A stretch of DNA of 32,030 bases. It comes from a virus. Lineage: Duplodnaviria; Heunggongvirae; Uroviricota; Caudoviricetes. Positions 1 to 31,127 of the stretch are shown here, one piece after another. The stretch's first letter is position 1. Each line of letters starts with the position of its first letter. The notes under the pieces were generated by a model. The model worked only from the letters and a program-made list of their open reading frames with translations, had not been told where the DNA came from and searched no databases. The translations under genes and the position numbers were made by a program. The stretch is taken from the IMG/VR virus record IMGVR_UViG_647533159_000006. One strand, written 5' to 3'.

Positions 1-1011
1 TTATAACGTCACTCCGCCTTTTAGTGGATTCAGAGCGACGGCATTTTGCAGGTAGTCAGGCGCAAGGTGCGCATAGGCCATCGTCTGCTGAATGCTCGCA
101 TGTCCCAGAATCTGTTGCAGTGCGATTATATTGCCCCCGTTCATCATGAAATGGCTTGCGAATGTATGCCGCAGGATGTGGGTTGCCTGATTGGGTGGTA
201 TATCAGGTTTCACTCTGCGTAAAATCCCGCAAAATTTCTCATAATCAACTTTGAATAATTTGGCGCTTGCCTCCTCTTTAACTTTTTTCTCCAGTTCCTC
301 AGAAATCGGCACGGTTCGCTTTTTACCGTTTTTGGTTTTCAGGAAGGTAACCCTGCAATTTGTAATCTGTGCTGGTTTTAGCGTGGCAACTTCCGTCCAT
401 CTTCCTCCAGTGCTCAGACATAAAAGCGCGACAAGTAAGTCATCACCAGCCAAAACATTTAACAGTTTTTCGATTTCTGCTTTTTCCAGGAACGTCATTT
501 CAGGGTTGGCCTCCGCCAGTGGCGGCAGTCCGTGAATTGGGTGTTGCCCGGAAAATTCATCCAATTGAATTAATTTTGTGAACATGCCGGATAATCGGTA
601 CATGTCACGGTTTATCGTTGCGGCACTGATACCATCACGTAGTCGTATGGAACGATAATCCATCAAAGCCCTTTTGCTCATCCGGCTCACTGGTATATCA
701 CCTATGCCGCTGATGGTTTTGAGTAGATGATTAAACTCTTTTGTTCCATGCTCGTGGTTTTGCCCGTGATATTTCCACCAGATGTCCAGCAACTCACTCA
801 AAGTTCGGCGGTCTGCTCGCTGGCCTCCCCATTCTTTCTGACTGGCATTGGCGATTGTGTATCGCTCAAATGCTAGTGCTTCAGCTTTTCTTTCGAATTT
901 CCTGCGGATGCGTTTTCCGTCGCGACCGCGAGGTCTAATGTCCACTTCATAGCGACCATCATCGAGCTTCTTAATTGCCATAAGAAAGCCCTCCGGCGCT
1001 GTATTCACCAT
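1..1011 (-). CDS. int: Tyrosine integrase (P2 Int-like)
   Basis: 336-aa minus-strand ORF; C-terminal catalytic region with ...HILRHTFASHFMMNGGNIIALQQILGHASIQQTMAYAHLAP (R..HxxR..Y tyrosine recombinase signature); sits at the prophage end next to the repressor. Confidence 0.9.
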   Translation of the reverse strand: MVNTAPEGFLMAIKKLDDGRYEVDIRPRGRDGKRIRRKFERKAEALAFERYTIANASQKEWGGQRADRRTLSELLDIWWKYHGQNHEHGTKEFNHLLKTISGIGDIPVSRMSKRALMDYRSIRLRDGISAATINRDMYRLSGMFTKLIQLDEFSGQHPIHGLPPLAEANPEMTFLEKAEIEKLLNVLAGDDLLVALLCLSTGGRWTEVATLKPAQITNCRVTFLKTKNGKKRTVPISEELEKKVKEEASAKLFKVDYEKFCGILRRVKPDIPPNQATHILRHTFASHFMMNGGNIIALQQILGHASIQQTMAYAHLAPDYLQNAVALNPLKGGVTL

Positions 1012-1050
1012 CTTGGTAGCAAATGGTGAAAATGTAATCTTTATATAGAG

Positions 1051-1344
1051 TTAGCCAATCCTTTTCGCGGAGTGGTTGGACTCTGTTGACTCTGGCCCAA
1101 TGTGCGCGAGAGCCGGTGCGATTTGTCCTGCGTCCGGCGCGGTTTTATCTGTCATAAGCCATAGAGCATATTTTTGGAATGTGGGATGCATAGTGATTTT
1201 TAGCAAAGCTGTGCCACCGGGTTCAAAGTTTCCTCCTTCATATTTTTTAAGTGTGCTTAGCGGTAACTCTATGATTTCACAGAATTTTGATTGGCTTAGC
1301 CCTTCAGCCTCACGCAAGGCCTTAATCTTTTCGCTTAATTTCAT
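1051..1344 (-). CDS. C: Immunity repressor (P2 C-like, HTH)
   Basis: 97-aa ORF with an N-terminal helix-turn-helix-like segment (LSQSKFCEIIELPLSTLKKYEGG); divergent from cox across an operator-containing intergenic region. Confidence 0.8.
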   Translation of the reverse strand: MKLSEKIKALREAEGLSQSKFCEIIELPLSTLKKYEGGNFEPGGTALLKITMHPTFQKYALWLMTDKTAPDAGQIAPALAHIGPESTESNHSAKRIG

Positions 1345-1465
1345 TTGACATGGTGCCTATATAGGGACTAAATTCCCTCAAAACTGGAACCTATATAGGT
1401 TCCATTGATTTGAGAATAAACCAGCGTCTAAACGGTTTTGAGTGGTTTAGAAAGGGCTGGATCCT
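1345..1465. promoter_or_regulatory. C/cox divergent promoter-operator region with repeated palindromic motif cctatatagg
   Basis: cctatatagg occurs at 1356..1365 and 1390..1399; the second copy lies within a perfect 18-bp palindrome ggaacctatataggttcc (1386..1403). Located between the divergent repressor and cox genes. Confidence 0.55.
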
Positions 1466-1753
1466 ATGAGGGTACCATATATGGACGCTGAAAATTATGT
1501 GATTCAGTATCCGCTTGATGCGGTTCATGTGGATAAATTTGCTGATTTATTAGGGAAGCCAAAGACAGCCGTCAGTGAAATGGTGAAGGCAAATAAATTA
1601 CCAATTATTGAATTGCGTGATCCTTGCAAACCGAAGGCTCGTGCCGGTGAAAAATGGGTTTTCATTCCTGAGTTTAATCGCGCTGTACGTGAGGCGTTTT
1701 ATAACCGACCGGTTGAACAGCGTGATGCATGGCTTTTGTGGATGGGGTTGTGA
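1466..1753 (+). CDS. cox: Cox-like excisionase / early-promoter regulator
   Basis: 95-aa ORF divergent from the repressor, at the P2 cox position. Confidence 0.7.
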   Translation: MRVPYMDAENYVIQYPLDAVHVDKFADLLGKPKTAVSEMVKANKLPIIELRDPCKPKARAGEKWVFIPEFNRAVREAFYNRPVEQRDAWLLWMGL

Positions 1754-1755
1754 TT

Positions 1756-1926
1756 ATGAATGAGCCGCGTTGTATTGCTCAGTTACTGCGTAACGAAAGC
1801 CCCAGGGCGATTGACTTCACCATCACCCACGGGAAGGGGCGCAAGGGAATCATTATCCGCACCAAAAAGCAGAGTCCGTTAAAGAAGGCTCTGACCTTTC
1901 TGAAAAGCCGGAGGGTATGGAAATGA
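1756..1926 (+). CDS. Small early protein (P2 orf78 position)
   Basis: ATG at 1756 (MNEPRC...) directly after the cox stop; the track ORF begins at 1729 in the same frame. Confidence 0.45.
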   Translation: MNEPRCIAQLLRNESPRAIDFTITHGKGRKGIIIRTKKQSPLKKALTFLKSRRVWK

Positions 1927-2423
1927 CAGTGATGACGCTTAATCTCGTTGAAAAACAGCCAGCAGCTATGCGCCGGATAATTGGTAAGCATCTTGCCGTC
2001 CCTCGCTGGCAGGATACATGTGATTATTATAATCAGATGATGGAGCGCGAACGGTTAACGGTTTGCTTTCATGCGCAGTTAAAACAGCGTCACGCAACGA
2101 TGCGTTTTGAAGAAATGAACGACGTCGAACGTGAACGGCTGGTTTGTGCAATTGATGAATTGCGTGGGGCATTCTCAAAACGCCGTCAGGTTGGCGCAAG
2201 TGAGTATGCATATATTAGTTTTTTAACAGTCAGTCAGCGTCGTACTTTATTTATGCATGCCGGATTGACTGAAAAAGAATTCAACCAGCCATACTGGCGA
2301 ATTAATGAAGAATCATGTTACTGGCGTGATGCTTTATTCCGTGCATTACGTGAATTATTCAGCCTGTTTGAGTACGCACCGACAATTCTGACGTCGGTAA
2401 AACCAGAGCAATATCTGCATTAA
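1917..2423 (+). CDS. B: Replication protein B-like
   Basis: 168-aa ORF at the P2 B position in the early operon. Confidence 0.65.
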   Translation: MEMTVMTLNLVEKQPAAMRRIIGKHLAVPRWQDTCDYYNQMMERERLTVCFHAQLKQRHATMRFEEMNDVERERLVCAIDELRGAFSKRRQVGASEYAYISFLTVSQRRTLFMHAGLTEKEFNQPYWRINEESCYWRDALFRALRELFSLFEYAPTILTSVKPEQYLH

Positions 2424-2486
2424 ATAATTAACCAGAGTTTTTAACGCACTTAATCGTGCGGGGCTTCTTTTTGCCTGGAGAAAGTC

Positions 2487-2711
2487 ATGCATACAGTTTC
2501 TGAAAATCAGTGCGGTAAATACGCATTACTGCTGCAACAGGCCAGAACCGAAGCACAGGCCGACGCTGCGACGCGCTTTTCTTCTCATCTTGACGCCATG
2601 ATTCGCCACATCACAAAGGCGGAGTTATCCCGCGTGGAGATAGTCGAGCTGCTCAGTCAGGAGTCGGAAAAATTTCACAACATCGGATTGTCTCGCGGGG
2701 AGGTGCTTTGA
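2487..2711 (+). CDS. Hypothetical early protein (P2 orf80 position)
   Basis: 74-aa ORF in the early operon, same strand, stop overlapping the next start. Confidence 0.5.
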
Positions 2712-3013
2712 TGTCCTGTTCTCATTCAGTTGTATTACTGAACAATGCCTTAAAAATCGCCGTTATGAAAAATGGCGATTTGTCTCTTATTCAACTTGGT
2801 CTTGATAAAGAAAAACGCGAAATAACTGAATCTGTTATCGCGATTTATCAGAGTGAATTAAACCTCCTGTCTGATGTGGTCAATTTACTTGTTAAACGCG
2901 CTGTATTTCACAAGCAAATTTCCTCCGTGGATGAACTGACGAAATTAACGACAGAAATCGCCAGCTATTGCGCTGATGAATTTAAAAAACTGAACGACAA
3001 AAGGAACTGGTAA
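2708..3013 (+). CDS. Hypothetical early protein (P2 orf81 position)
   Basis: 101-aa ORF translationally coupled to its neighbours (start and stop codon overlaps). Confidence 0.5.
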
Positions 3014-3237
3014 TGCCGGACAACGTAGATTTTATTCAGGAACAACAGGCTGAATTACTGGAGCGCCAGATTAACGCGGCAAGGGTAAAACATTGTGGTG
3101 CTTCTGCGCTGGTTTGCGAAGAGTGTGACGCGCCAATACCTGCTGCCCGTCGTGCGGCTTATCCGTCAGCCACGCGTTGTGTTTCCTGTCAGTCAGTCTT
3201 TGAAGCAAAAAACAAACATTACCGGAGAACGGCATGA
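3013..3237 (+). CDS. TraR/DksA-family C4 zinc-finger protein (P2 orf82 position)
   Basis: 74 aa with CxxC...CxxC (CEECDAPIPAARRAAYPSATRCVSCQ), typical of TraR/DksA-type zinc fingers. Confidence 0.6.
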   Translation: MPDNVDFIQEQQAELLERQINAARVKHCGASALVCEECDAPIPAARRAAYPSATRCVSCQSVFEAKNKHYRRTA

Positions 3238-3509
3238 GTATTCGTATTGAAATTGGCGAACGTTATGTCGTTACCAGTGACAGCTTTCAGTTTATTCTCC
3301 ACGAGAAAAAGAGAGCTGAAAGCGGTAAAAATGCCGGTCAGGAATGGCTGGCGGTAGTTGGTTATTACCCGAAATTAAGCCAGCTCGTTTCCGGCCTGAT
3401 GCATCACGATATTCTGACCGGAAGCGCAAAATCTTTTGCTGATTTAAACGCGCAGGTTGAGCAACTCAGCAAGCGTTGTTCAGAGGCTTTTGGCTCACAT
3501 GGCCGTTAA
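3234..3509 (+). CDS. Hypothetical early protein (P2 orf83 position)
   Basis: 91-aa ORF coupled to orf82 and overlapping the start of A. Confidence 0.5.
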   Translation: MSIRIEIGERYVVTSDSFQFILHEKKRAESGKNAGQEWLAVVGYYPKLSQLVSGLMHHDILTGSAKSFADLNAQVEQLSKRCSEAFGSHGR

Positions 3510-5784
3510 AGCCTCCGGGCATTTTGTCCCTCCGTCAGCATTTGCCGCAGGCACCGGTAAGACGTTTACCGGTGCTTATGCATGGAACGCGCCACGCGAG
3601 GCCGTCGGGCGCGAAAGACCTCTTACACGTGACGAGATGCGTCAGGTGCAAGGTGTTTTATCCACGATTAACCGCCTGCCTTACTTTTTGCGCTCGCTGT
3701 TTACTTCACGCTATGACTACATCCGGCGCAATAAAAGCCCGGTGCACGGGTTTTATTTCCTCACATCCACTTTTCAGCGTCGTTTATGGCCGCGCATTGA
3801 GCGTGTGAATCAGCGCCATGAAATGAACACCGACGCGTCGTTGCTGTTTCTGGCAGAGCGTGAGCACTATGCGCGCCTGCCGGGAATGAATGACAAGGAG
3901 CTGAAAAAGTTTGCCGCCCGTATCTCATCGCAGCTTTTCATAATGTATGAGGAACTCTGCGATGCCTGGGTGGATGCGCATGGCGAGAAAGAATCGCTGT
4001 TTACGGATGAGGCGCAGGCTCACCTGTATGGTCATGTTGCTGGCGCTGCACGTGCTTTCAATATTTCCCCGCTCTACTGGAAAAAATACCGTAAAGGGCA
4101 GATGACCACGAGGCAGGCATATTCTGCCATTGCCCGTCTGTTTAACGATGAGTGGTGGACTCATCAGCTTAAAGGCCAGCGTATGCGCTGGCATGAGGCG
4201 TTACTGATTGCTGTCGGGGAGGTCAATAAAGACCGTTCTCCTTATGCCAGTAAACATGCCATTCGTGATGTGCGTGCGCGCCGCCAGGCAAATCTGGAAT
4301 TTCTTAAATCGTGTGACCTTGAAAACAAGGAAACCGGCGAGCGCATCGACCTTATCAGTAAGGTGATGGGCAGTATTTCTAATCCAGAAATTCGCCGGAT
4401 GGAGCTGATGAACACCATCGCCGGTATTGAGCGTTACGCTGCCGCAGAGGGTGATGTGGGGATGTTTATCACGCTGACCGCGCCGTCAAAGTATCACCCG
4501 ACACGTCAGGTCAGAAAAGGCGAAAGTAAAACCGTCCAGCTAAATCACGGCTGGAATGATGAGGCATTTAATCCAAAGGATGCGCAGCGTTATCTCTGCC
4601 GTATCTGGAGCCTGATGCGCACGGCATTCAAGGATAATGATTTACAGGCCTACGGTTTGCGTGTTGTTGAACCACACCACGACGGAACGCCGCACTGGCA
4701 TATGATGCTTTTTTGTAATCCACGCCAGCGTAACCAGATTATTGAAATCATGCGTCGCTACGCGCTCAAAGAGGATGGAGACGAAAGAGGAGCCGCGCGA
4801 AACCGTTTTCAGGCAAAACATCTTAACCGGGGCGGTGCTGCGGGGTATATCGCGAAATACATCTCAAAAAATATCGACGGCTATGCACTGGATGGTCAGC
4901 TCGATAATGATACCGGCAGACCGCTGAAAGATACTGCCGCGGCTGTTACCGCATGGGCGTCAACGTGGCGCATCCCGCAATTTAAAACGGTTGGTCTGCC
5001 GACAATGGGGGCTTACCGTGAACTACGCAAATTGCCTCGCGGCGTCAGCATTGCTGATGAGTTTGACGAGCGCGTCGAGGCTGCACGCGCCGCTGCAGAC
5101 AGTGGTGATTTTGCGTTGTATATCAGCGCGCAGGGCGGGGCAAATGTCCCGCGCGATTGTCAGACTGTCAGGGTCGCCCGTAGCCCGTCGGATGAAGTTA
5201 ACGAGTACGAGGAAGAAGTCGAGAGAGTGGTCGGCATTTACGCGCCGCATCTCGGCGCGCGTCATATTCATATCACCAGAACCACGGACTGGCGCATTGT
5301 GCCGAAAGTGCCGGTCGTTGAGCCTTTGACTTTAAAAAGCGGCATCGCCGCGCCTCGGAGTCCTGTCAATAACTGTGGAAAGCTCACCGGTGGTGATACT
5401 TCGTTACCGGCTCCCACGCCTTCTGAGCACGCCGCAGCAGTGCTTAATCTGGTTGATGACGGTGTTATCGAATGGAATGACCCGGAGGTCGTGAGGGCGC
5501 TCAGGGGCGCATTAAAACACGGCCTGAGAAGACCAAATCGTCAGCAAAGAAACGGAAGCCCGTTAAAACCGCATGAAATTGCACCATCGGCCAGACTGAC
5601 CCGGTCTGAACGATTGCAAATCACCCGTATCCGCGTTGACCTTGCTCAGAACGGTATCAGGCCGCAGCGATGGGAGCTTGAGGCGCTGGCGCGTGGCGTG
5701 ACCGTAAATTATGACGGGAAAAAATTCACGTATCCGGTCGCTGATGAGTGGCCGGGGTTCTCAAAAGTAATGGAGTGGACATAA
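3499..5784 (+). CDS. A: Replication initiation protein A (rolling-circle HUH endonuclease)
   Basis: ATG at 3499 (MAVKASGHFVPP...) gives 761 aa; contains the HUH motif (PHWHMMLF) and a tyrosine pair (GYIAKYISK) typical of rolling-circle initiators; the track ORF starts upstream at 3457 in frame. Confidence 0.9.
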   Translation: MAVKASGHFVPPSAFAAGTGKTFTGAYAWNAPREAVGRERPLTRDEMRQVQGVLSTINRLPYFLRSLFTSRYDYIRRNKSPVHGFYFLTSTFQRRLWPRIERVNQRHEMNTDASLLFLAEREHYARLPGMNDKELKKFAARISSQLFIMYEELCDAWVDAHGEKESLFTDEAQAHLYGHVAGAARAFNISPLYWKKYRKGQMTTRQAYSAIARLFNDEWWTHQLKGQRMRWHEALLIAVGEVNKDRSPYASKHAIRDVRARRQANLEFLKSCDLENKETGERIDLISKVMGSISNPEIRRMELMNTIAGIERYAAAEGDVGMFITLTAPSKYHPTRQVRKGESKTVQLNHGWNDEAFNPKDAQRYLCRIWSLMRTAFKDNDLQAYGLRVVEPHHDGTPHWHMMLFCNPRQRNQIIEIMRRYALKEDGDERGAARNRFQAKHLNRGGAAGYIAKYISKNIDGYALDGQLDNDTGRPLKDTAAAVTAWASTWRIPQFKTVGLPTMGAYRELRKLPRGVSIADEFDERVEAARAAADSGDFALYISAQGGANVPRDCQTVRVARSPSDEVNEYEEEVERVVGIYAPHLGARHIHITRTTDWRIVPKVPVVEPLTLKSGIAAPRSPVNNCGKLTGGDTSLPAPTPSEHAAAVLNLVDDGVIEWNDPEVVRALRGALKHGLRRPNRQQRNGSPLKPHEIAPSARLTRSERLQITRIRVDLAQNGIRPQRWELEALARGVTVNYDGKKFTYPVADEWPGFSKVMEWT

Positions 5785-6233
5785 TGGCAAAAATTCACGA
5801 GGTAAAGCTGCACGCAAAATATTTTGACCTTGTACTGGAAGGAAAGAAACGAGCAGAGTTTCGTAAAAATGACCGTAATTATGAGTGCGGGGACACGTTG
5901 ATTTTGCATGAATGGGTGCAGGGGGTGTATACGGGGCGAAAGGTTGAAACCCGGATAACGGATGTTACTGACCTGTCAGACTGGATGGAAGGTTATGTCT
6001 TGCTAAGTATTGAGCTGCTTAATACAGGCGCATATGAGATTGTGAACTGGAAAGAACTTAGTGAGCGTGGTCTGGTATTCAGAATTAATCATGACATTAT
6101 GCATCAGCTCGGCCTTGCTGTTATGTATGAACCAGAGACGGGGATGTCTGGCGGGGCAATGGTTGCCACGGATGGAGCATGGAACTATTCAGATGAACAG
6201 ATGGAGCATGCAAAGCAAAATGGGTGGTTTTGA
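5785..6233 (+). CDS. ASCH/DUF3850-like (PUA-fold) domain protein
   Basis: ATG at 5785 immediately after the A stop (MAKIHEVKLHAKYFDLVLEGKKRAEFRKNDRNYECGDTLILHEW...), a pattern I recognise as DUF3850/ASCH-like; this is a motif-level call. Confidence 0.45.
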
Positions 6234-6235
6234 AA

Positions 6236-6472
6236 ATGCACAGAATACCGGGTGAGATACCGCTGCATAACACTAAAAATATCAAGCTGATGGCCATTGT
6301 TCACCGTCTACAACAGATTATGGTCAATGAGAATCTGACGCCCGATGAGCTAGTCGGGTGCGCTGAAATTGTCAGGGATAATTACGGACGGTTCAACGAT
6401 ATCAGTCGACCGAAAGTTAAGACATATCAACCATATAATATGCTTAAACAACCACCACGCAGGCTTGAGTAA
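6236..6472 (+). CDS. Hypothetical small protein
   Basis: 78-aa ORF from the ATG at 6236 (track ORF 6224..6472); no recognisable motif. Confidence 0.35.
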   Translation: MHRIPGEIPLHNTKNIKLMAIVHRLQQIMVNENLTPDELVGCAEIVRDNYGRFNDISRPKVKTYQPYNMLKQPPRRLE

Positions 6473-6613
6473 ACGCCGCTAGTGCTGAAACTTGCTTTCT
6501 GGGCTAGCGGCGTTGAACAACGAGCGTAGTGAGGCGTTAGTTATGTAAAGTTAAAGTAATTTAAAACAGTATATTAGTGGAAAGGATGTTGAGAGTATTC
6601 GGTTACGAGAGGG

Positions 6614-6651
6614 AATGGATGTATTTACAGAAAATGGATGTATTTACAGAA
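6614..6651. repeat. Perfect 19-bp tandem direct repeat (aatggatgtatttacagaa x2)
   Basis: Read directly: 6614..6632 and 6633..6651 are identical; lies in the AT-rich intergenic region about 140 bp upstream of the methyltransferase start. Confidence 0.8.
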
Positions 6652-6793
6652 ATTGTTGGATTAATTGTAGTAAAGCTAGGATAGGATAAGGCCTTAGGGC
6701 TGGATGTGGGGAGCCTTCTTGTAGTTTGCTAAAACGCTCGAGATTTTTGAAGGATACAGTTATACTCTGCCGGAGGATGAATCGGAGACTAAA

Positions 6794-7831
6794 ATGGCGG
6801 TAAAAGTTGTTGATCTTTTTTGTGGTGCTGGCGGGCTTACTCATGGCTTAAAGCAAGCCGGATTAGATGTAGTCGCTGGTATTGATATAGAGAGTGCATG
6901 CCGGGTTGCTTATGAAAGTAATAACAGTGCGCTTTTTATTGAAAAAGATATTTCTCTGGTGACCAAAGACGAGCTTAACGATCTTTTTGAAGGTGCGCAG
7001 GTCAGGGTGTTGGCTGGTTGTGCGCCGTGCCAACCTTTTTCAAGGTATACGCAAGGGCGCGATAAGAAAAATGATAAAAAGTGGCCTCTTCTTTATGAAT
7101 TTGAACGTTTAATTCGAGGGGTTAATCCAGAGATCGTTACAATGGAAAATGTGCCTGATGTAACGAAGCATTCTGTTTATAGTGACTTCTATAATAGTTT
7201 AGAGGCATTGGGTTATCATGTCTGGGCCGGAAAGGTTGAATGTGTAGATTATGGTGTTCCGCAAAATAGAGTAAGGCATGTATTATTGGCATCTAAATTT
7301 GCGCCGCTTTCATTTGTAAAACCAAAAGTAGAAAAGGCGGTGACGGTAAAAGAATGCATTGGCGGACTTCCTCCATTAAAGGCAGGTCAAACGGATCCTG
7401 TTGATCCTTTACATAAAGCAAGTAAATTAAGTGATATAAATCTAAAACGTATTGCTTGCTCTAAACCAGGAGGGACATGGCGAGACTGGCCAGTAGAGTT
7501 GATTGCATCATGCCACATAAAGAAAAGTGGGCAAGGTTATGCTAGTGTATACGGACGTATGGATTGGGATAAACCAAGTCCTACAATTACTACGCTATGT
7601 TATGGTTTTGGAAATGGCAGATTTGGTCATCCAGAGCAAAATCGTGCAATTTCTCTGAGAGAGGCTGCATTGTTGCAAACGTTTCCAAAGGATTACGTTT
7701 TTACTGCACCCAATGAGAAAGTATCTATAAAGAATGTTGGTAGGATGATTGGTAATGCAGTACCGGTAAAACTAGGTGAGGTTATAGGTGAGTCAATTAT
7801 AACTCACCTAAAAGAGCACAATATAGTTTAA
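6794..7831 (+). CDS. DNA (cytosine-5)-methyltransferase
   Basis: 345 aa with canonical C5-MTase motifs: I DLFCGAGG, IV PCQPFS, VI ENV, VIII QNRVR, X GNAVP; GGAG Shine-Dalgarno 7 nt upstream of the ATG. Confidence 0.9.
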   Translation: MAVKVVDLFCGAGGLTHGLKQAGLDVVAGIDIESACRVAYESNNSALFIEKDISLVTKDELNDLFEGAQVRVLAGCAPCQPFSRYTQGRDKKNDKKWPLLYEFERLIRGVNPEIVTMENVPDVTKHSVYSDFYNSLEALGYHVWAGKVECVDYGVPQNRVRHVLLASKFAPLSFVKPKVEKAVTVKECIGGLPPLKAGQTDPVDPLHKASKLSDINLKRIACSKPGGTWRDWPVELIASCHIKKSGQGYASVYGRMDWDKPSPTITTLCYGFGNGRFGHPEQNRAISLREAALLQTFPKDYVFTAPNEKVSIKNVGRMIGNAVPVKLGEVIGESIITHLKEHNIV

Positions 7832-8559
7832 GCATGTAGTCTTGATGATCGTATGTATAAGCGATCATCAAGGTATTTTTGTATGTTTTCTAGTATTTCT
7901 TCTAGGTAATGGAAAACTTCATTTTTAAGAAGTTCAAGGTTGTCAATAGACGTTTCTTGACCCTTGTTTAAAAAGGATTCTGAACCATGTGCCAATGCAT
8001 TTCTTGCTTTTTTTATGTTTACTAAATTTCCACCATTATGAGTTTTTGAACGATCTGTTTGATAGGAAAAACCATAGATATTAGCAACATCCCTAATTTT
8101 CTGTGCGTCAACATTTCCCGAAAATAGGGGGTTTTTATCTGCTTGAACTTGTTTTTTGTGTTCCTCTAGCCATTTTTTTAGAACTAGTTTTGCTATATCA
8201 CCTTGTGAAAAATCCATGTCACTCACCATATGATGGTCTAATTTTTTTAAGGCAAGCTTTGTTAAACTTTCGCAAATCTTATCGACACAAAGATCATCGC
8301 ACGAATTAAGTTCATTATGTATGTCTTCAATAGCATTAGATATAGTGGCTTCAATTAAGTTATATAATATAATAAACGCATTGGCTTTAAGGATATGCGT
8401 CATTTCGATATCGATTTCGCGGTGTTTACATTCGCCTGCTGTGCGATCTTTGTACGAGAAAGTTGGTCTCTCATCAATAATGAATTTAACAAAATTAAAA
8501 TATTTTTCTATATCTTCTTTTCTTTCAGAAAATAAAATTTTGCTGTTCATAATGACCAC
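7828..8559 (-). CDS. HEPN-like protein with Rx4H motif (putative RNase/effector), second gene of the DUF262 operon
   Basis: 243-aa ORF (GTG start 8559 with GGAG upstream; alternative ATG at 8550); C-terminal KKARNALAHG matches the HEPN Rx4-6H signature; 6 bp downstream of the DUF262 gene on the same strand; 3' end overlaps the MTase 3' end by 4 bp. Confidence 0.55.
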   Translation of the reverse strand: MVIMNSKILFSERKEDIEKYFNFVKFIIDERPTFSYKDRTAGECKHREIDIEMTHILKANAFIILYNLIEATISNAIEDIHNELNSCDDLCVDKICESLTKLALKKLDHHMVSDMDFSQGDIAKLVLKKWLEEHKKQVQADKNPLFSGNVDAQKIRDVANIYGFSYQTDRSKTHNGGNLVNIKKARNALAHGSESFLNKGQETSIDNLELLKNEVFHYLEEILENIQKYLDDRLYIRSSRLHA

Positions 8560-8565
8560 GGATAG

Positions 8566-9690
8566 TTACTCCTCACTATCATCTAGAACAGTATCTTCGG
8601 TCTGCACACCTAAAAGTTTGTCTCTTACATATTCAATACGTGCTTTTACTTTAGGTTTTGAGTTTGACGCATCAGATCTTGTATGTTTAATAAACTCTTC
8701 TGAGTTTAACCATTCCTCTACCGGTGTTGGTATTATGTTAGAGTTAGTTTTTAAGGCTAAAGTGGAACCGACAGCTAACGCTTCAAAGCGAATTCTTGGT
8801 ACAGTGTTTGCTGTTGCATTCTTTCTGAAACCATAGGGGAAATGTGTTTTGACAAATTCACACATATCTTGAAATTGTGCAGTTAGTTTTTCTTCTTGCT
8901 CAGGACTAAATGACTCATTTCGTTGGTCAAGATATTGGGTTAAGAAAGTATCAACACTTTTTTCAAAGTTAAGATAGTTATCACAATAGGCAAAATATCT
9001 AAGAACCAATTCTGGATATTCTCCACGACTGATTCTGGCATCGTTTAGAGGGCATATTTCCCTAAACAATGGAAACTCTGATAGTCTATTAACAACATCA
9101 AGAAAAGGCCCATCATTACTGCCCTGTCGTTGCTCCATTGTCGTGAGTTTTATTCCACCTGTATTCAATCGATCGAAAATCTCCCTTCTTGCTTCTTCAT
9201 CACATAATTCAGTGAGTTCAATCATTCGAATAGTTTTTCTATCGAATCTAAGCTTACGTGCAGGTGTGAAGTCAGAGTATTTGAATCCGTTGGCTGAAGT
9301 TAACTTTTTTAATCCAGTAAGGGTAAATTTATCATTTAGAAAATGATAAAGTGTTCTAATCCTCTGGCTACCATCAACGATTTCCAATCGCCCATCGTCA
9401 TTTCCGATATCGGCAACAAATACATATGGGATAGGAATATTTAGCAAAAGCGATTCAATGAATCTTGATTTTTGAACATTGCTCCAAACAAATTCCCTTT
9501 GATAATCAGGTATGTATAGTTCTGCTTGGTCGGTTTCTAATCCTTTCTGAAATTTGTCAACAATGACACTTACAGGAAACTCTCTAATTTGGTGATCCGT
9601 TATTTTTTGCATGGATTTGATCTGGTTATCCAGGTCAACTTTATCTTCTTCTGTGATCACTTGTTCAGGTTGTCTTGGGACTCTTGCCAT
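8566..9690 (-). CDS. DUF262 (ParB/Srx-like NTPase-fold) domain protein
   Basis: ATG at 9690 preceded by AAGGAG (track ORF extends to a GTG at 9765); DUF262 motifs IPDYQREFVW, IVDGSQRIRTL and FDRLNTGGIKLT; about 170 C-terminal residues without a recognisable HNH/DUF1524 motif. Confidence 0.75.
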   Translation of the reverse strand: MARVPRQPEQVITEEDKVDLDNQIKSMQKITDHQIREFPVSVIVDKFQKGLETDQAELYIPDYQREFVWSNVQKSRFIESLLLNIPIPYVFVADIGNDDGRLEIVDGSQRIRTLYHFLNDKFTLTGLKKLTSANGFKYSDFTPARKLRFDRKTIRMIELTELCDEEARREIFDRLNTGGIKLTTMEQRQGSNDGPFLDVVNRLSEFPLFREICPLNDARISRGEYPELVLRYFAYCDNYLNFEKSVDTFLTQYLDQRNESFSPEQEEKLTAQFQDMCEFVKTHFPYGFRKNATANTVPRIRFEALAVGSTLALKTNSNIIPTPVEEWLNSEEFIKHTRSDASNSKPKVKARIEYVRDKLLGVQTEDTVLDDSEE

Positions 9691-9833
9691 TTGTTTTCTC
9701 CTTATGCTTATTTGCAATAAGTTGCATTTGTTTGCATGCGTAGTTTTATACTGATTTAATCCCACAAGTCCTTTACATGCAAGGGTTAGAGGCTTAAATG
9801 CACCTGCATTAAAACCGCCTTATGAAGCGGGCA

Positions 9834-9852
9834 GGCGAGGCGGGGAAAGCAC
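9834..9852. other. cos site (P2-type 19-nt cohesive end ggcgaggcggggaaagcac)
   Basis: Matches the P2 cohesive-end sequence as I recall it; located between the cargo and the portal gene, where P2 cos lies. Confidence 0.6.
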
Positions 9853-9993
9853 TGCGCGCTGGCGGTGGTGCTGATTTTATTTTTTCAGCGTCTCAGCGCG
9901 TCGTGACGGCGTTTGGATTGTGCGCCGGGGCGTTGGTGTGTCTGCGGGGTGTTTTGTGCGGTGGTGAGCGTGTGAGGGCGTGATGACGGGGTG

Positions 9994-10016
9994 TAAAAAA
10001 GCCGCCCGCAGGCGGC
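9994..10016 (-). terminator. Rho-independent terminator downstream of Q
   Basis: On the minus strand: gccgcc-tgcg-ggcggc hairpin followed by a T-run (plus-strand aaaaaa 9995..10000), directly after the Q stop. Confidence 0.65.
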
Positions 10017-10021
10017 GATGT

Positions 10022-11056
10022 TCAGCCGTTGTCAGTGTCCAGTGAGTAGTTTTTAAAGCGGATGACCTCCTGACCGAGCCAGCCGTTTATCTCGCGGATC
10101 CTGTCCTGTAACGGGATAAGCTCATTGCGGACAAAGACCTTTGCCACTTTCTCAATATCTCCCAGTGACCCGACGTTCTCCGGCTTGCCGCCCATCAACT
10201 GAAAGGGGATGCGGTGTGCGTCCAGCAGGTCAGCGGCGCTGGCTTTTTTGATATTAAAAAAATCGTCCTTCGTTGCCACTTCACTGAGCGGGATAATTTT
10301 AATGCCGTCAGCTTTCCCCTGCGGGGCATAGAGAAACAGGTTTTTAAAGTTGTTGCGGCCTTTCGACTTCACCATGTTTTCGCGAAGCATTTCGATATCG
10401 TTGCGATCCTGCACGGCATCGGTGACGTACATGATGTATCCGGCATGTGCGCCGTTTTCGTAATACTTGCGGCGGAACAGCGTGGCCGACTCATTCAGCC
10501 AGGCAGAGTTAAGGGCGCTGAGATATTCCGGCAGGCCGTACAACTCCTGATTAATATCCGGCTCCAGCAGGTGAAACACGGAGCCGGGCGCGAAGGCTGT
10601 CGGCTCGTTGAAGGACGGCACCCACCAGTAAACATCCTCTTCCACACCACGGCGGGTATATTTTGCCGGTGAGGTTTCCAGTCTGATGACCTTACCGGTG
10701 GTGCTGTAACGCTTTTCCAGAAACGCATTACCGAACACCAGAAAATCCAGCACAAAGCGGCTGAAATCCTGCTGAGAAAGCCACGGATGCGGAATAAACG
10801 TTGAAGCCAGAATATTGCGTTTAACGTAAATCGGCGAGCTGTGATGCACGGCAGCACGCAGGCTTTTTGCCAGACCGGTAAAGCTGACCGGTGGCTCATA
10901 CCATCTGCCGTTACTGATGCACTCGACGTAATCCAGAATGTCACGGCGGTCGAGAACCGGCACCGGCTCGCCAAAGGTGAATGCCTCCATTTTCGGTGCA
11001 CTGGCGGTCATTGTTTTTGCCGCAGGTTGCGGTGTTTTCCCTTTTTTCTTGCTCAT
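10022..11056 (-). CDS. Q: Portal protein
   Basis: 344 aa (P2 gpQ length), minus strand, upstream neighbour of the large terminase, adjacent to cos. Confidence 0.85.
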   Translation of the reverse strand: MSKKKGKTPQPAAKTMTASAPKMEAFTFGEPVPVLDRRDILDYVECISNGRWYEPPVSFTGLAKSLRAAVHHSSPIYVKRNILASTFIPHPWLSQQDFSRFVLDFLVFGNAFLEKRYSTTGKVIRLETSPAKYTRRGVEEDVYWWVPSFNEPTAFAPGSVFHLLEPDINQELYGLPEYLSALNSAWLNESATLFRRKYYENGAHAGYIMYVTDAVQDRNDIEMLRENMVKSKGRNNFKNLFLYAPQGKADGIKIIPLSEVATKDDFFNIKKASAADLLDAHRIPFQLMGGKPENVGSLGDIEKVAKVFVRNELIPLQDRIREINGWLGQEVIRFKNYSLDTDNG

Positions 11057-21155: not shown

Positions 21156-21759
21156 TTCGCGACTGCTGCCGACCGGCTCATCACCGCTTGAAGTCGCCGC
21201 CGCAAAAGCCTGTGCGGAAATTGAAAAAACGCCGGTCAGTATTCGTGAGCTGTGGAACCCGGACACCTGCCCGGCAAATCTGCTGCCGTGGCTGGCGTGG
21301 TCATTTTCGGTTGACCGCTGGGATGATAAGTGGCCGGAAGCGACAAAACGCGCTGTTATCCGCGATGCGTATTTCATTCACTGCCATAAGGGCACTATAG
21401 GCGCAATCCGGCGTGTGGTGGAGCCGCTCGGCTATCTGATTGAGGTGAGGGAGTGGTGGCAACTCAATGAGGAGCCGGGGACGTTCCGTATCGTTGTTGG
21501 CGTGCTTGAGCAGGGTATTACCGAGGAAATGTATCAGGAGCTGGAGCGCCTCGTTGCTGATGCAAAACCGGCAAGCCGCCATCTGACGGGACTGGCTATC
21601 AGTTTAAGTACAACCGGCAACATTTTTGCCGGTGCGGGATGCTATCACGGCGACGCCCTGACAGTTTATCCCTACACCCCGGAGGCCATTATTGTCGGAG
21701 GGGATTATTTCCCGGCCTCGGCCATTCATTTAATTGATAACCTGAGAGTAAACGCATGA
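21148..21759 (+). CDS. I: Baseplate protein I
   Basis: 203-aa track ORF, overlapping the J stop and the H start. Confidence 0.7.
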   Translation: MSDSRLLPTGSSPLEVAAAKACAEIEKTPVSIRELWNPDTCPANLLPWLAWSFSVDRWDDKWPEATKRAVIRDAYFIHCHKGTIGAIRRVVEPLGYLIEVREWWQLNEEPGTFRIVVGVLEQGITEEMYQELERLVADAKPASRHLTGLAISLSTTGNIFAGAGCYHGDALTVYPYTPEAIIVGGDYFPASAIHLIDNLRVNA

Positions 21760-22854
21760 CAGTGAAATACTACGCCATTCTGACTAATCAGGGCGCAGCA
21801 CGGCTGGCTAACGCGACGATGCTTGGCAGTAAGCTGAATCTGACGCAAATGGCCGTTGGTGATGCGAATGGTGTCTTGCCGACACCAGACCCGGCACAGA
21901 CAAAACTGATTAACCAGAAACGCATCGCGCCGCTGAATCTTCTGAGTGTTGACCCGAACAACCAGAGCCAGATTATTGCGGAGCAAATTATCCCTGAGAA
22001 CGAGGGTGGATTCTGGATCCGTGAGATTGGGCTTTATGATGATGAAGGCGTACTCATTGCGGTGGCGAACTGCCCGGAAACGTACAAACCGCAGTTACAG
22101 GAAGGCAGCGGTCGTACCCAGACTATCCGCATGATTCTGGTTGTCACGAATACCGAAGCTATTACGCTGAAAATCGACCCGTCGGTGGTACTGGCGACCC
22201 GTAAATACGTGGATGATGAAGTCCTGGAATTAAGGCTGTATGTGGATGACCAGATGAGAAACCACATTGCCGCACAGGATCCTCATACCCAGTATGCACA
22301 GAAACATAATCCGACATTTACCGGAGAACCAAAAGCGCCGACTCCTGATGCAGGAAATAACACCACGCGGATTGCGACCACTGCGTTTGTACAGGCTGCT
22401 ATTACCGCTCTGATTAATGGTGCGCCTGCCACGCTGGACACACTGAAAGAAATTGCCGCAGCCATTAACAATGACCCGAAATTCAGCACCACCATTAACA
22501 ATGCGCTGGCAGGTAAACAACCGCTGGACAATACGCTGACTCATTTGAGTGGAAAGGATGTTGCCGGTCTTCTCGCATACCTTGGTTTGGGAGAAGGTTC
22601 TCCAGCTATTGGCGTTCCGTTCTTCTGGCCGTCCGCTGCAATGCCAAATACTGTAATCGACAGCTGGTCCAGTATGGTGTTTTTGAAGTTCAACGGCGCG
22701 AAATTCTCTGCCACTGATTACCCTGTGCTGGCGAAAGTGTTTCCTTCGCTGGTATTACCTGAAGCCCGCGGTGATTTCATTCGTATCTGGGATGACGGGC
22801 GAGGTGCAGACGGTGGTCGCGAATTATTAAGCTGGCAGGCAGCTACAAACTTTT
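21756..22854 (+). CDS. H: Tail fibre protein H (3' end truncated by the N-run; C-terminal part lies in an invertible segment)
   Basis: Long ORF after I that runs into the N-run with no stop; C-terminal visible part (...GDFIRIWDDGRGADGGR...) resembles Mu/P1 S-type variable tail-fibre regions. Confidence 0.8.
22570..22595. promoter_or_regulatory. Hin/Gin-family recombination site (hix-like), left copy inside H
   Basis: ttctcgcatacc-tt-ggtttgggagaa; its reverse complement matches the right copy at 19 of 26 positions including TTCTCC and AAACCAA; counted by hand. Confidence 0.6.
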
Positions 22855-23407
22855 NNNNNNNNNNNNNNNNNNNNNNNNNNNNNNNNNNNNNNNNNNNNNN
22901 NNNNNNNNNNNNNNNNNNNNNNNNNNNNNNNNNNNNNNNNNNNNNNNNNNNNNNNNNNNNNNNNNNNNNNNNNNNNNNNNNNNNNNNNNNNNNNNNNNNN
23001 NNNNNNNNNNNNNNNNNNNNNNNNNNNNNNNNNNNNNNNNNNNNNNNNNNNNNNNNNNNNNNNNNNNNNNNNNNNNNNNNNNNNNNNNNNNNNNNNNNNN
23101 NNNNNNNNNNNNNNNNNNNNNNNNNNNNNNNNNNNNNNNNNNNNNNNNNNNNNNNNNNNNNNNNNNNNNNNNNNNNNNNNNNNNNNNNNNNNNNNNNNNN
23201 NNNNNNNNNNNNNNNNNNNNNNNNNNNNNNNNNNNNNNNNNNNNNNNNNNNNNNNNNNNNNNNNNNNNNNNNNNNNNNNNNNNNNNNNNNNNNNNNNNNN
23301 NNNNNNNNNNNNNNNNNNNNNNNNNNNNNNNNNNNNNNNNNNNNNNNNNNNNNNNNNNNNNNNNNNNNNNNNNNNNNNNNNNNNNNNNNNNNNNNNNNNN
23401 NNNNNNN
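22855..23407. other. Assembly gap (553 N)
   Basis: Contiguous n characters; lies between the two hix-like sites. Confidence 1.
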
Positions 23408-23567
23408 GATATCATTCCAGTTAATTGAGATGGAATAGTTCGTTGTTGTAAACGATCGGGGGAAAGTTATGTGTCTTACATTGGTGCCGACAGGAAATCC
23501 AAGATAAACACGCTGAATTATCATTCCTCCAGGTAACATAACCCAGTTAGCACCTTCTCCAAAACCA
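23408..23567 (-). CDS. Alternative tail-fibre C-terminal segment (partial, reads from the right hix-like site into the gap)
   Basis: The minus-strand frame ...GFGEGANWVMLPGGMIIQRVYLGFPVGTNVRHITFPRSF... is in the same codon phase relative to the crossover dinucleotide as H (LGLGEGSPAIG...), so inversion would fuse it in frame to the constant part of H. Confidence 0.5.
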
Positions 23568-23579
23568 ACGTTTAAGAAA
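23554..23579. promoter_or_regulatory. Hin/Gin-family recombination site (hix/gix/cix-like), right copy
   Basis: ttctccaaaacc-aa-cgtttaagaaaa closely resembles hixL/gix/cix 26-bp sites (12-2-12 imperfect palindrome); located about 57 bp upstream of the invertase start. Confidence 0.7.
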
Positions 23580-23635
23580 ATGCAGAGATTATGGCTAACT
23601 GGCATCATCTCCGGTTTTTATTCAGGGGGATGCTC

Positions 23636-24229
23636 ATGCTTATTGGCTATGTACGCGTGTCAACAAATGACCAGAACACGGAATTGCAGCGTAACGCGCT
23701 GGAGTGCGCGGGATGTGAGCGGATTTTTGAGGACAAAATCAGCGGCACGAAGTCCGACAGGCCGGGACTGAAAAAACTGCTCAGAACATTATCAGCAGGT
23801 GACACTCTGGTAGTCTGGAAGCTGGACCGGCTGGGGCGTAGTATGCGGCATCTGGTCATTCTGGTTGAGGAGCTGCGCGAACGCGGCGTTAATTTTCGCA
23901 GCCTGACAGATGCTATTGATACCAGCACGCCGATGGGGCGTTTTTTCTTTCATGTGATGGGTGCCCTGGCTGAAATGGAGCGAGAACTCATTGTCGAGCG
24001 GACACGCGCCGGACTGGAAGCGGCCAGAGCCAAAGGGCGTATTGGTGGCAGACGTCCGAAGCTCACCGCGAGTGAGTGGGAACAGGCAGGACGGTTGCTG
24101 GCTGCGGGTGAATCACGTCAACGCGTGGCGCTGATTTTTGATATTGGCCTGTCCACGCTCTATAAAAAATTCCCCTCATCAGCGGCAAAGAATAAATTGT
24201 GTCATCCCTTAGCCAACCGGGACAAATAG
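23636..24229 (+). CDS. Serine DNA invertase (Hin/Gin/Cin/Pin family)
   Basis: ATG at 23636 (MLIGYVRVSTNDQNTELQRNAL...): resolvase/invertase N-terminal catalytic serine motif plus a C-terminal HTH; track ORF starts at 23591. Confidence 0.9.
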   Translation: MLIGYVRVSTNDQNTELQRNALECAGCERIFEDKISGTKSDRPGLKKLLRTLSAGDTLVVWKLDRLGRSMRHLVILVEELRERGVNFRSLTDAIDTSTPMGRFFFHVMGALAEMERELIVERTRAGLEAARAKGRIGGRRPKLTASEWEQAGRLLAAGESRQRVALIFDIGLSTLYKKFPSSAAKNKLCHPLANRDK

Positions 24230-30591: not shown

Positions 30592-30672
30592 TATTTTTAT
30601 TTTATCTATTTGTTTTATAAGGATAAATTAACTAAAATGGCACCATTAACAAAACCGGAAGAGGTGCTCGCG

Positions 30673-31046: not shown

Positions 31047-31127
31047 ATCCTCAATTTGCCTGCTGCTTAATGCATTGCAGATGATTTGCTTCCGTTATAC
31101 TAGCGTCAGTTGATAGCGGGAGTATTT

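Follow-up and report, generated by a model that had tools for sequence, protein, structure and literature searches.

The gpA-gpQ region of P2-like prophages, also called the TO region and occupied by tin and old in P2, is a recognized hotspot (Odegrip 2006; Rousset et al. 2022, PMC9122126; Vassallo et al. 2022, PMC9519451) and a documented reservoir of anti-phage systems (PMC9122126, PMC9519451). Several described systems that resemble the locus reported here are built on DUF262 proteins. These proteins sense modified DNA in GmrSD, BrxU and SspE (PMC12065111, PMC10952713), and NsnA of the Menshen system has been proposed to sense phage DNA (PMC12065111). PD-T4-2, which pairs a DUF262 protein with a HEPN protein, shields E. 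coli from T4 (Vassallo 2022, PMC9519451).

An operon type composed of MAE_28990 HEPN, ParB and DNA methylase genes was listed by Anantharaman et al. 2013 (Table 1, PMC3710099), and within the searchable literature a single paper uses the name MAE_28990 in its main text. The exact arrangement found here is listed in Table S5A of Rousset 2022 under accessions WP_000124986 and WP_000279422; that study catalogued this cargo, which is absent from the systems tested there (PMC9122126). Both accessions are annotated in the E. coli prophage L001, which is 99.4% identical to our sequence over 6200-9900.

Here, we analyzed a 32,030-nt stretch of DNA (the window, positions numbered from its first letter), which is a P2-like prophage. 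With hotspot and arrangement already known, the locus is a correct textbook case of the P2 defence hotspot and offers no new principle. Taken as a whole, it is probably best explained as hotspot cargo whose three-gene cassette forms one restriction-modification (R-M)-like functional unit.

Hotspot position and base composition

The left part of the prophage carries int, C, cox and A and the right part cos, Q, P, O and N, as in P2; in between, the gene order is A, DUF3850, orf78, methyltransferase (MTase), HEPN, DUF262, cos, Q. Gene A (3499..5784, + strand) carries a replication endonuclease annotation in L001 (96% identity), and gene Q (10022..11056, - strand), annotated as portal in the same prophage, lies in a region 97% identical to P2. 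The cos 19-mer GGCGAGGCGGGGAAAGCAC (9834..9852, + strand) aligns with P2 cosR and cosL.

Alignment to P2 shows 97% identity up to 6004 and resumes at 9805, with 96-97% nucleotide identity over the flanks as a whole; relative to P2, the 3' portion of orf91 together with tin and old is replaced. The junctions were compared by blastn with six comparators, P2 and five other Peduoviruses. The latter five have the right junction at 9797-9800 in common and carry unrelated inserts there (cdtABC, DUF4209, an exoribonuclease and others), and homology resumes within 9797..9805 in L003, L004 and L006-L009. This edge lies 29-37 bp before the cos 19-mer, and not about 65 bp as given in an earlier sequence-only reading, whose end point, 9770, is merely the end of a mechanical GTG-start ORF. 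On the left, homology with L002, L003, L007, L008 and L009 stops at 5751-5760, which makes the last ~25-33 bp of gene A the left-most junction; further edges are found at 6004 (against P2), at 6541, and at 6727, where homology with a diverged allele of this cargo begins. Thus, the low-GC island placed at 6480 by the earlier reading is real, but on its left it has a series of nested edges instead of one boundary.

Flank matches were found in 1603 of 5426 complete E. coli genomes, as compared with only 4 that carry this cargo and 16 that carry any of its three alleles, so the genes are not core components conserved in all P2-like phages. The conserved flanks and differing inserts bear out the proposal that the cargo replaces tin and old between A and cos. 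The locus shares with the P2 TO region its position between A and cos/Q and the conserved junction beside cos, but methylase, DUF262 and HEPN proteins stand in place of Tin and Old. The break in colinear transcription had also been taken as a foreign signature. This part of the reading does not hold, since the leftward HEPN-DUF262 operon, read from the cos side, matches old-tin in orientation and position and Q-P in orientation; the break is therefore the normal layout of the locus.

Base composition sets the insert apart. GC content is 0.371 over 6480-9770, as opposed to 0.522 for the whole window; in the backbone, gene A has 0.536, Q has 0.529 and the late genes reach 0.566 (about 55-57%). 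The lowest value among 3.3-kb windows outside 6480-9770 is 0.452 (mean 0.551, sd 0.035). GC3 is 0.28 for MTase, 0.24 for HEPN and 0.27 for DUF262, whereas the backbone genes A, Q, P, O and N have values of 0.55-0.71; cargo and backbone stand at 0.27 versus 0.63 in GC3 and 0.371 versus 0.55 in GC. The Jensen-Shannon divergence in codon usage between the two is 0.163, far above the maximum of 0.014 obtained in 1000 size-matched resamples of backbone codons. The AT-richness noticed by eye is thus confirmed, and the composition is readily distinguished from that of the backbone. Hotspot cargo is AT-rich in general: GC is 0.33 for tin and 0.35 for old in P2 and 0.33-0.42 for other inserts, compared with 0.37 in the present case. 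The AT-rich string quoted in the sequence-only reading corresponds to 7888-7934. A second deep GC dip, at 22750-23500, was rejected because it is a run of 553 N with no real sequence.

These data bear on the possibility that the stretch is native and that its low GC is no more than the usual variation in composition among early or accessory genes belonging to the phage itself. The early region (1-3456) is itself below the window mean (GC 0.455, GC3 0.45), as this explanation would have it, but the cargo GC3 of 0.27 is well under even that of the early genes, and the codon divergence exceeds the resampling maximum more than tenfold. Moreover, relatives hold unrelated DNA between identical junctions, and the same three genes are found outside phages. 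The alignment of relatives and the codon divergence already refute a native origin, the probability of which we consider negligible. The findings support the view that the low-GC stretch came into the gpA-cos/gpQ hotspot of this P2-like prophage as cargo, by horizontal exchange.

The fall in GC starts to the left of 6480, in two genes with values of 0.44-0.45. The first (5784..6233, + strand) encodes a DUF3850/ASCH and DUF7415 protein (Pfam PF12961, 4e-18; PF24187, 5e-14; PF04266, 8e-11; phrog_1812, 7e-80). It is a longer relative of P2 orf91 within which P2 homology breaks off at 6004, has a GC3 of 0.46, and is a semi-conserved accessory gene of the hotspot. The second, orf78 (6236..6472, + strand; 78 aa; phrog_11386, 2e-44), is common in P2-like prophages and annotated in L001; positions 6200-6540 are the part of the query aligned by most of the matches listed among the 1603 E. 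coli genomes, and the orf78 part is common to Yersinia phage YpM_50 up to 6541. Directly 3' of orf78, a hairpin with 19-bp arms (6472..6514, inverted repeat I4), located within the homology with L006 that ends at 6541, is probably the end of both the rightward early transcript and the DUF3850-orf78 sub-module. The spacer that follows (6541-6727) is specific to this arrangement and contains a perfect 19-bp tandem duplication of AATGGATGTATTTACAGAA (6614..6651, repeat family D2), a unit present in single copy in the closest relative, L001. The insert may accordingly be pictured as nested modules, with the DUF3850-orf78 pair (5784-6541) and the three-gene cassette (about 6727-9797) in the place of tin-old.

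Genes and signals of the cassette

The rightward gene (6794..7831, + strand) encodes a full-length C5-cytosine DNA methyltransferase (PF00145, 1.3e-54 over residues 4-336; TIGR00675, 4e-37; PADLOC DrmMII, 6e-94, and MTase_II, 5e-90), and its translation contains the catalytic motifs FCGAGG, PCQPFS, ENV, QNRVR and GNAVP. A candidate sigma-70 promoter, TCGAGA-17-TATACT (6738..6766, + strand; 9/12 in a consensus scan), is located just inside 6727, the left end of homology with the diverged allele L002. Stop codons of the MTase and HEPN genes overlap at 7828-7831, and a 14-bp-stem hairpin followed by a T-run (7839..7874), situated shortly beyond the MTase stop within the 3' end of the HEPN coding sequence, is probably a terminator between these convergent genes.

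The HEPN gene (7828..8550, - strand) encodes a 240-aa protein of the MAE_28990 family, a predicted nuclease effector (PF18737, 6.8e-21; 75.9 bits versus a cut-off of 26.8). It has a HEPN fold and an invariant Rx4H motif (RNxLAHG), which agrees with the Rx4-6H pattern of Anantharaman 2013, and its best structural matches include HEPN-MNT toxins. A PADLOC search with this protein returned no matching model, the sole hit being PDC-M49B at E=0.078.

The DUF262 gene (8566..9690, - strand), separated from the downstream HEPN start by 15 bp, encodes a 374-aa, NsnA-like ParB-type protein, a predicted NTPase and DNA sensor. PADLOC NsnA matches it at 5.9e-56 (188.4 bits; residues 23-357 aligned to positions 34-377 of a 385-position profile), PD-T4-2_A more weakly at 1.7e-34 (117.5 bits), and a weak PADLOC REase_II match (2.5e-8) falls in the DUF262 region. 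The NTPase motifs are invariant and the fold is BrxU/SspE-like. In Pfam, only GmrSD_N was detected and no DUF1524/HNH domain; across the cassette proteins, Pfam and PADLOC revealed no DNase fold (PD-(D/E)XK, HNH, GIY-YIG or PLD). Catalytic motifs or parts are intact in all three proteins. Upstream of the operon, a cargo-specific region (9691..9797, - strand) is not homologous to other P2-like phages. A consensus promoter scan found none for DUF262-HEPN, whose promoter is presumed to lie in this region by analogy with P2, where old-tin mRNA starts were mapped next to cos.

Linkage of the three genes

The MTase and the DUF262/HEPN operon had been correctly recognized as cargo in the sequence-only reading, which missed their unity as a conserved three-gene module. 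Three alleles of the E. coli P2 hotspot have all three genes in identical layout, and each of the 16 copies in E. coli P2 hotspots retains the complete trio. The proteins of allele L002 are 80, 68 and 61% identical to those of the window, and homology with this diverged allele covers exactly the three genes (6727-9612). An m5C MTase accompanied DUF262 and HEPN in each of ten homologue loci sampled from the protein database, in contexts that included P2-like and P22-like phages, Tn7 cargo, a type I R-M island, a plasmid-like element and metagenomic chromosomes. The same convergent three-ORF layout is seen in a Moraxella phage, by layout only, as the genes are unannotated and no Pfam search was run on them.

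In a species-level scan, DUF262 was directly upstream of HEPN in 77 of 80 loci, and an m5C MTase was adjacent in 42. The MTase-less loci essentially constitute one cyanobacterial clade, outside of which there were one locus cut by a contig end and one with a Dam-like MTase. A decay survey found four loci with broken DUF262 and/or HEPN and an intact MTase, and none with a broken MTase and both partners intact. Peduovirus P24B2 has a frameshifted MTase beside two intact partners unless this is a sequencing error; if it is not, the DUF262-HEPN pair is not lethal without the methylase. The MTase does not co-evolve strictly with its partners: its lineage was exchanged in two of nine loci (L013 and L015, about 30% identity), and distances correlated at r=0.55 between MTase and partners and at r=0.96 between DUF262 and HEPN.

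Some of these observations would suit two stacked, independent cargos: an orphan m5C MTase serving the phage (e.g., by protecting phage DNA from host restriction, or in epigenetic control) next to a PD-T4-2-like, type IV-like DUF262-HEPN pair that needs no methylase. PD-T4-2 functions as DUF262 and HEPN alone, about 22-32 cyanobacterial pairs lie between housekeeping genes with no nearby MTase, and many P2 hotspots carry more than one system (Rousset 2022, PMC9122126). The swapped lineages and the frameshift in P24B2 point the same way, as does the fact that the MTase is encoded on the other strand and has a separate candidate promoter. Nevertheless, we consider independent cargos unlikely. 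The linkage recurs across unrelated contexts and phyla and in two gene orders, is complete in the E. coli hotspot copies and essentially universal outside one clade, and coincides with the exact extent of homology to the diverged allele; the asymmetry of decay also argues against independence. In addition, a type IV-like attacker of m5C would be self-destructive in the company of an m5C methylase. We favour reading the cargo as a single unit of m5C methyltransferase, ParB-type DUF262 NTPase and MAE_28990-family HEPN nuclease.

Such a unit might serve chiefly as an addiction module that stabilizes the prophage by post-segregational killing, like many type II R-M and toxin-antitoxin (TA) pairs, with defence secondary or absent. 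A potentially toxic HEPN nuclease adjoins a methylase, HEPN proteins are common as TA toxins (HEPN-MNT toxins being among the best structural matches), the MTase outlasts its broken partners and never the reverse in the decay survey, and the cassette occurs on several kinds of mobile elements. However, the site is an anti-phage reservoir, PD-T4-2, the closest relative to have been tested, protects its native strain against T4, and some copies lie on chromosomes where no mobile element is seen nearby. We regard a mainly addictive role as very unlikely, although addiction and defence are not mutually exclusive. By analogy with characterized relatives, the cassette is likely an anti-phage R-M-like system.

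Proposed mechanism and relation to known systems

In the anti-phage model, the MTase, transcribed rightward, would mark lysogen DNA at its target sites. The DUF262 NTPase, with a DNA-binding C-terminal half, and HEPN would be expressed as a leftward operon from beside cos, converging on the MTase gene. The DUF262 protein may read the methylation state of DNA through NTP hydrolysis, as do its relatives BrxU, GmrSD and SspE, and would control the HEPN nuclease. Unmarked foreign DNA, or loss of the mark, would release HEPN, which would most likely cut RNA (tRNA or mRNA) and halt infection, and the prophage would benefit by guarding its host against competing phages. The data establish the position of the cassette, its foreign composition, its modular junctions, the conserved linkage of the three genes and their intact catalytic motifs; we infer the anti-phage role, the DUF262 ligand, the HEPN substrate and which component restrains which. 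HEPN enzymes are RNases, and with no recognizable DNase domain in the cassette, classical restriction by DNA cleavage is unsupported.

It is possible, and we suggest it only tentatively, that the cassette represents a distinct, as yet unnamed form of R-M-like immunity, a methylation-state-gated abortive infection in which m5C is the self-mark, a ParB-family NTPase that is not an endonuclease acts as reader, and a HEPN RNase executes. If so, discrimination would occur on DNA and execution on RNA, and this immunity would have a wide distribution among bacterial phyla, on P2-like, P22-like and Moraxella phages and Tn7-like elements. Being short (about 3.1 kb), phage-borne, phylogenetically widespread and intact in its catalytic motifs, the cassette serves as a pointer to how a ParB-type NTPase might link methylation sensing on DNA with a HEPN RNase.

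The comparison with type II R-M systems rests on the full-length, active-looking MTase, which is tightly linked and convergent with overlapping stops; here, however, no endonuclease with a recognized DNase fold was found. GmrSD, BrxU and SspE (DUF262-DUF1524 proteins of type IV restriction and phosphorothioate sensing) have the same N-terminal DUF262 domain with NTPase motifs. They differ in their C-terminal DUF1524 His-Me/HNH domain and in length (about 560-600 aa versus 374 aa), whereas the present locus has a separate HEPN effector and an m5C methylase, not Ssp/Dnd enzymes, as the mark-writer. With Menshen (NsnABC; Millman 2022; Li et al. 2025, PMC12065111), the similarity is in the DUF262 protein, which aligns at full length with NsnA (ParB-DUF262 plus the C-terminal helical DNA-binding half, ParBDB). 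HEPN and methylase genes replace the NsnB ABC ATPase and the NsnC effector; HEPN is the only gene downstream of DUF262, and the A-cos interval contains no ATPase ORF.

PrrC-EcoprrI likewise ties a HEPN nuclease genetically to a DNA-modification system and provides a model for a latent RNase released during infection. PrrC, an anticodon nuclease of the HEPN class that a type Ic R-M system restrains, has its own ABC ATPase and lies inside hsdMSR, while the NTPase here is of the ParB type and there is no HsdR-like DNase. The operon of Anantharaman 2013 (PMC3710099) contains all three components, with the ParB-like DUF262 and methylase genes adjacent. In that one-line gene-neighbourhood entry, ParB was the DNase and HEPN a back-up RNase by analogy with PrrC; the ParB-type protein here has NTPase motifs and no recognizable nuclease domain, and the methylase is inverted (convergent) in the enterobacterial phage copies.

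Finally, PD-T4-2 of E. coli ECOR65 (Vassallo 2022) is a validated anti-phage system of two genes, DUF262 and HEPN, and its PD-T4-2_A profile matches our DUF262 protein. Its two ORFs span about 1.54 kb, compared with 1.86 kb for DUF262-HEPN here, and its HEPN is listed under PF18735, whereas the HEPN here matches no PADLOC model. PD-T4-2 was cloned without a methylase, whereas an m5C MTase is linked in the window and in all E. coli alleles; why PD-T4-2-like pairs occur both with and without a dedicated methylase is a question for which this cassette is of value.

Composition and boundaries of the hotspot cargo

The window represents a complete prophage of the P2-like (Peduovirus) type. Its left part carries the integrase, the C repressor, cox, and an early operon that closes with replication gene A (3499-5784). 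The cos 19-mer, GGCGAGGCGGGGAAAGCAC, is located at 9834-9852, and to its right lie portal gene Q and terminase gene P, both minus-strand, followed by the late genes, ogr (30610-30891), and a host fieF-like cation-efflux gene (31110-32030). Since this host gene follows ogr, the right prophage-host junction is placed at ~30.9-31.1 kb.

The sequence-only reading had described an AT-rich stretch at 6480-9770, and GC content, GC3, and codon usage all confirm that it deviates from the backbone. In a 500-bp sliding profile, GC stays at 0.33-0.42 from ~6250 to 9750, compared with 0.50-0.58 in gene A on the left and 0.52-0.62 in the late genes on the right. The stretch as a whole has a GC content of 0.371 versus 0.522 for the window, and the lowest value among equal-length windows elsewhere is 0.452 (mean 0.551, sd 0.035). 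GC3 is 0.28, 0.24, and 0.27 in the methyltransferase, HEPN, and DUF262 genes, respectively, compared with 0.55-0.71 in A, Q, P, O, and N and 0.39-0.58 in early genes. The Jensen-Shannon divergence in codon usage between cargo and backbone (0.163) far exceeds the maximum of 0.014 reached when backbone codons were resampled 1000 times at matched size, so the compositional shift is real and far beyond chance. The inserts of P2-like comparators are similarly AT-rich (P2 tin 0.33, old 0.35, others 0.33-0.42), and low GC is therefore a general property of the locus.

A second island at the GC dip near 23 kb (0.08-0.1) was considered and rejected, as the dip is a run of 553 N at 22855-23407, within the tail-fibre region, from either masking or a gap in the assembly. 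Around it, the N-terminus of tail-fibre gene H (PF12571) is followed by the N run, minus-strand ORF remnants, and a Hin/Gin-type serine invertase (23636-24229; Resolvase 8e-53, plus HTH_7). This region (21756-24229) is likely to be an invertible tail-fibre (host-range) segment, and it occupies the place of Z/fun, the second P2 hotspot.

Breakpoints of the cargo were determined by blastn against P2, four Peduoviruses with other cargo, and a diverged allele of this cargo in two copies. On the right, homology resumes at 9797-9805 in Peduovirus P24B2 (L003), Yersinia phage YpM_50 (L006), and comparators L004 and L007-L009. The cos 19-mer thus begins 29-37 bp beyond the right edge rather than ~65 bp as had been proposed; position 9770 is merely the end of a mechanical GTG-start ORF. 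On the left, homology ends at 5751-5760 in phages lacking the DUF3850 gene, at 6004 in P2 (inside orf91/DUF3850), at 6541 in YpM_50, which has DUF3850, the 78-aa ORF, and a hairpin at 6472-6514 in common with the window, and, in the diverged allele, at 6727, a position 67 bp ahead of the start codon of the methyltransferase. One right junction and nested left junctions define a hotspot of ~5760-9797 and, inside it, a three-gene cassette of ~6541/6727-9797. The view of this stretch as horizontally exchanged cargo at the P2 hotspot is thus supported with corrected and nested boundaries, and its status as cargo is virtually certain.

The spacer upstream of the methyltransferase contains a perfect 19-bp tandem duplication (AATGGATGTATTTACAGAA x2) at 6614-6651; the element is single-copy in L001, an E. 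coli prophage and the closest relative. Within the spacer (6541-6727) we found no ORF, RNA-family match, or conserved counterpart, and the duplication has no evident function; we treat this stretch as a recombination scar or spacer. Rfam searches revealed no RNA family within 5700-10100. At the other end, a terminator-like hairpin (CCGCTTCATAAGGCGG + TTTTAATG) is present on the minus strand at 9815-9830, in the conserved backbone that separates the cargo from cos, and could insulate the cargo operon from Q-P read-through across cos.

Genes of the hotspot

The first two genes encode a DUF3850/ASCH + DUF7415 protein (5784-6233), which is a longer relative of P2 orf91, and a 78-aa protein (6236-6472) from a phage family with no assigned function. 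They are followed by a full-length C5-cytosine methyltransferase on the plus strand (6794-7831; PF00145, 1.3e-54) with its catalytic motifs present. Its PDB matches (HaeIII, HhaI, DNMT1, and others) cover the conserved catalytic core only, and the methylation target therefore cannot be inferred from them.

Two minus-strand genes, separated by 15 bp, complete the cassette. The DUF262 protein (8566-9690, 374 aa; PF03235, 7e-29) matches PADLOC NsnA over its full length (5.9e-56) and lacks a DUF1524 domain; its QRxxxW, DGSQR, and FDRLN motifs are invariant in 22 homologues, and BrxU and SspE are nearest to its AlphaFold model (pLDDT 79). The HEPN protein (7828-8550, 240 aa; PF18737, 6.8e-21) belongs to the MAE_28990 family. 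Its RNxLAHG motif is invariant across 29 homologues, down to 22% identity, and its predicted structure (pLDDT 91) most resembles HEPN toxins, YutE, the sacsin HEPN domain, and Csm6. PDB sequence searches returned no solved relative of either protein, PADLOC had no usable model for HEPN (sole match PDC-M49B, E=0.078), and NCBIfam had nothing for HEPN, DUF262, DUF3850, or orf78. In PHROGs, HEPN (phrog_3846) and DUF262 (phrog_2598) both fall into families of unknown function.

The stop codons of the methyltransferase and HEPN genes overlap at 7828-7831, and a strong hairpin with a T-run (7839-7874) lies just past them. The leftward orientation of HEPN-DUF262 is that of P2 old-tin, for which the mRNA starts have been mapped beside cos. 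As a promoter scan, which overall gave fewer sites than in shuffles, found no consensus promoter in 9691-9797, we infer expression of the DUF262-HEPN operon from the P2 old-tin layout.

Occurrence and cohesion of the cassette

The flanking backbone was matched in 1603 of 5426 complete E. coli genomes, and the cargo of the window in only 4 (96-99% identity). A second allele (~70-75% nucleotide identity) occurs in 3 other genomes of the set and a third in 9; all 16 copies occupy the same hotspot and have all three genes. In the phage collection, no record contained the whole region, and Peduovirus P24B2 carries the second allele.

Beyond E. coli, an m5C methylase, DUF262, and HEPN occurred together in all 10 homologue loci from the protein database (26-65% identity). 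These include P2-like and P22-like prophages (of Serratia and Providencia, respectively), Pseudomonas Tn7 cargo, a type I R-M island, a Shewanella defence island, a Polaromonas plasmid-like element, and several metagenomic chromosomes. A Moraxella phage found by tblastn has three unannotated ORFs in the convergent layout of the window. A Pseudomonas locus on a Tn7-like element (L105, 4001-9107) encodes a 649-aa HATPase_c_3 (GHKL/MORC-like) protein between the DUF262-HEPN pair and the methylase, and is a four-gene variant of the cassette carried as Tn7 cargo.

A scan with one genome per species yielded 80 loci. DUF262 is directly upstream of HEPN in 77 of them, and an m5C methylase is adjacent in 42. 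The DUF262 ORF is near full length in 71 loci; of these, 24 have the methylase upstream in the same direction and 15 have it downstream in convergent orientation, and the order is clade-specific. Methylase-less loci are essentially one cyanobacterial clade (L027-L085), in which stand-alone DUF262-HEPN pairs lie between housekeeping genes and which represents a natural methylase-less variant; the exceptions outside it are one locus truncated at the end of its contig and another with a Dam-like methylase.

Co-evolution of DUF262 and HEPN is tight (r = 0.96), and the methylase lineage is the same in 7 of 9 loci and swapped in 2. Four loci combine an intact methylase with a broken DUF262 and/or HEPN gene, and none the reverse, the numbers being small. 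In P24B2, a 1-nt G insertion in a G-run at ~3106 frameshifts the second-allele methylase and leaves DUF262 and HEPN intact; if true, it would mean that the pair can be tolerated when its methylase is lost, and if a sequencing error, it is meaningless. The three genes very probably form one restriction-modification-like unit, whose methylase module is occasionally exchanged or lost.

Proposed working and known systems

Characterised DUF262 enzymes use NTP hydrolysis in response to DNA modification: GmrSD responds to glucosyl-hmC, BrxU to 5mC, hmC, and glc-hmC, and SspE to a phosphorothioate mark from its own partner genes (PMC12065111; PMC10952713; 10.1101/2024.01.29.577857). HEPN enzymes with a known substrate cleave RNA in reviewed cases and are typically latent until infection; PrrC, for example, is restrained by the EcoprrI R-M complex. 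The most economical model, which we offer tentatively by analogy with these enzymes, is that the methylase would mark self DNA, the DUF262 protein would read its methylation state and gate the HEPN nuclease, and RNA would be cut upon unmarked DNA or a failing mark. An anti-phage role of the cassette is itself likely.

The cargo finding is ordinary and already known. The hotspot was first described as the TO region and later analysed systematically by Rousset et al. 2022 (PMC9122126), and four new systems were found there by Vassallo et al. 2022 (PMC9519451). Table S5A of Rousset et al. lists the cassette under WP_000124986 and WP_000279422, the accessions annotated in L001, which shares 99.4% identity with the window across 6200-9900. 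The table also has several entries for the third allele, and the systems tested in that study do not include the cassette. The operon type, MAE_28990 HEPN with ParB and a DNA methylase, has a one-line entry in Table 1 of the 2013 survey of Anantharaman et al. (PMC3710099). MAE_28990 appears in the main text of no other searchable paper, and the main text of a 2026 NAR paper on P2/P4 hotspots (PMC13586616) does not mention DUF262. The residual interest is in the cassette itself, which is already catalogued.

Identity with Menshen was rejected because NsnB and NsnC are absent, and a GmrSD-type enzyme for lack of DUF1524. PD-T4-2 was rejected for lack of a matching partner, as its models do not recognise the HEPN protein of the window. 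This anti-T4 system, composed of DUF262 and HEPN, is nevertheless the nearest validated one, and it differs from the cassette further in being shorter and methylase-less.
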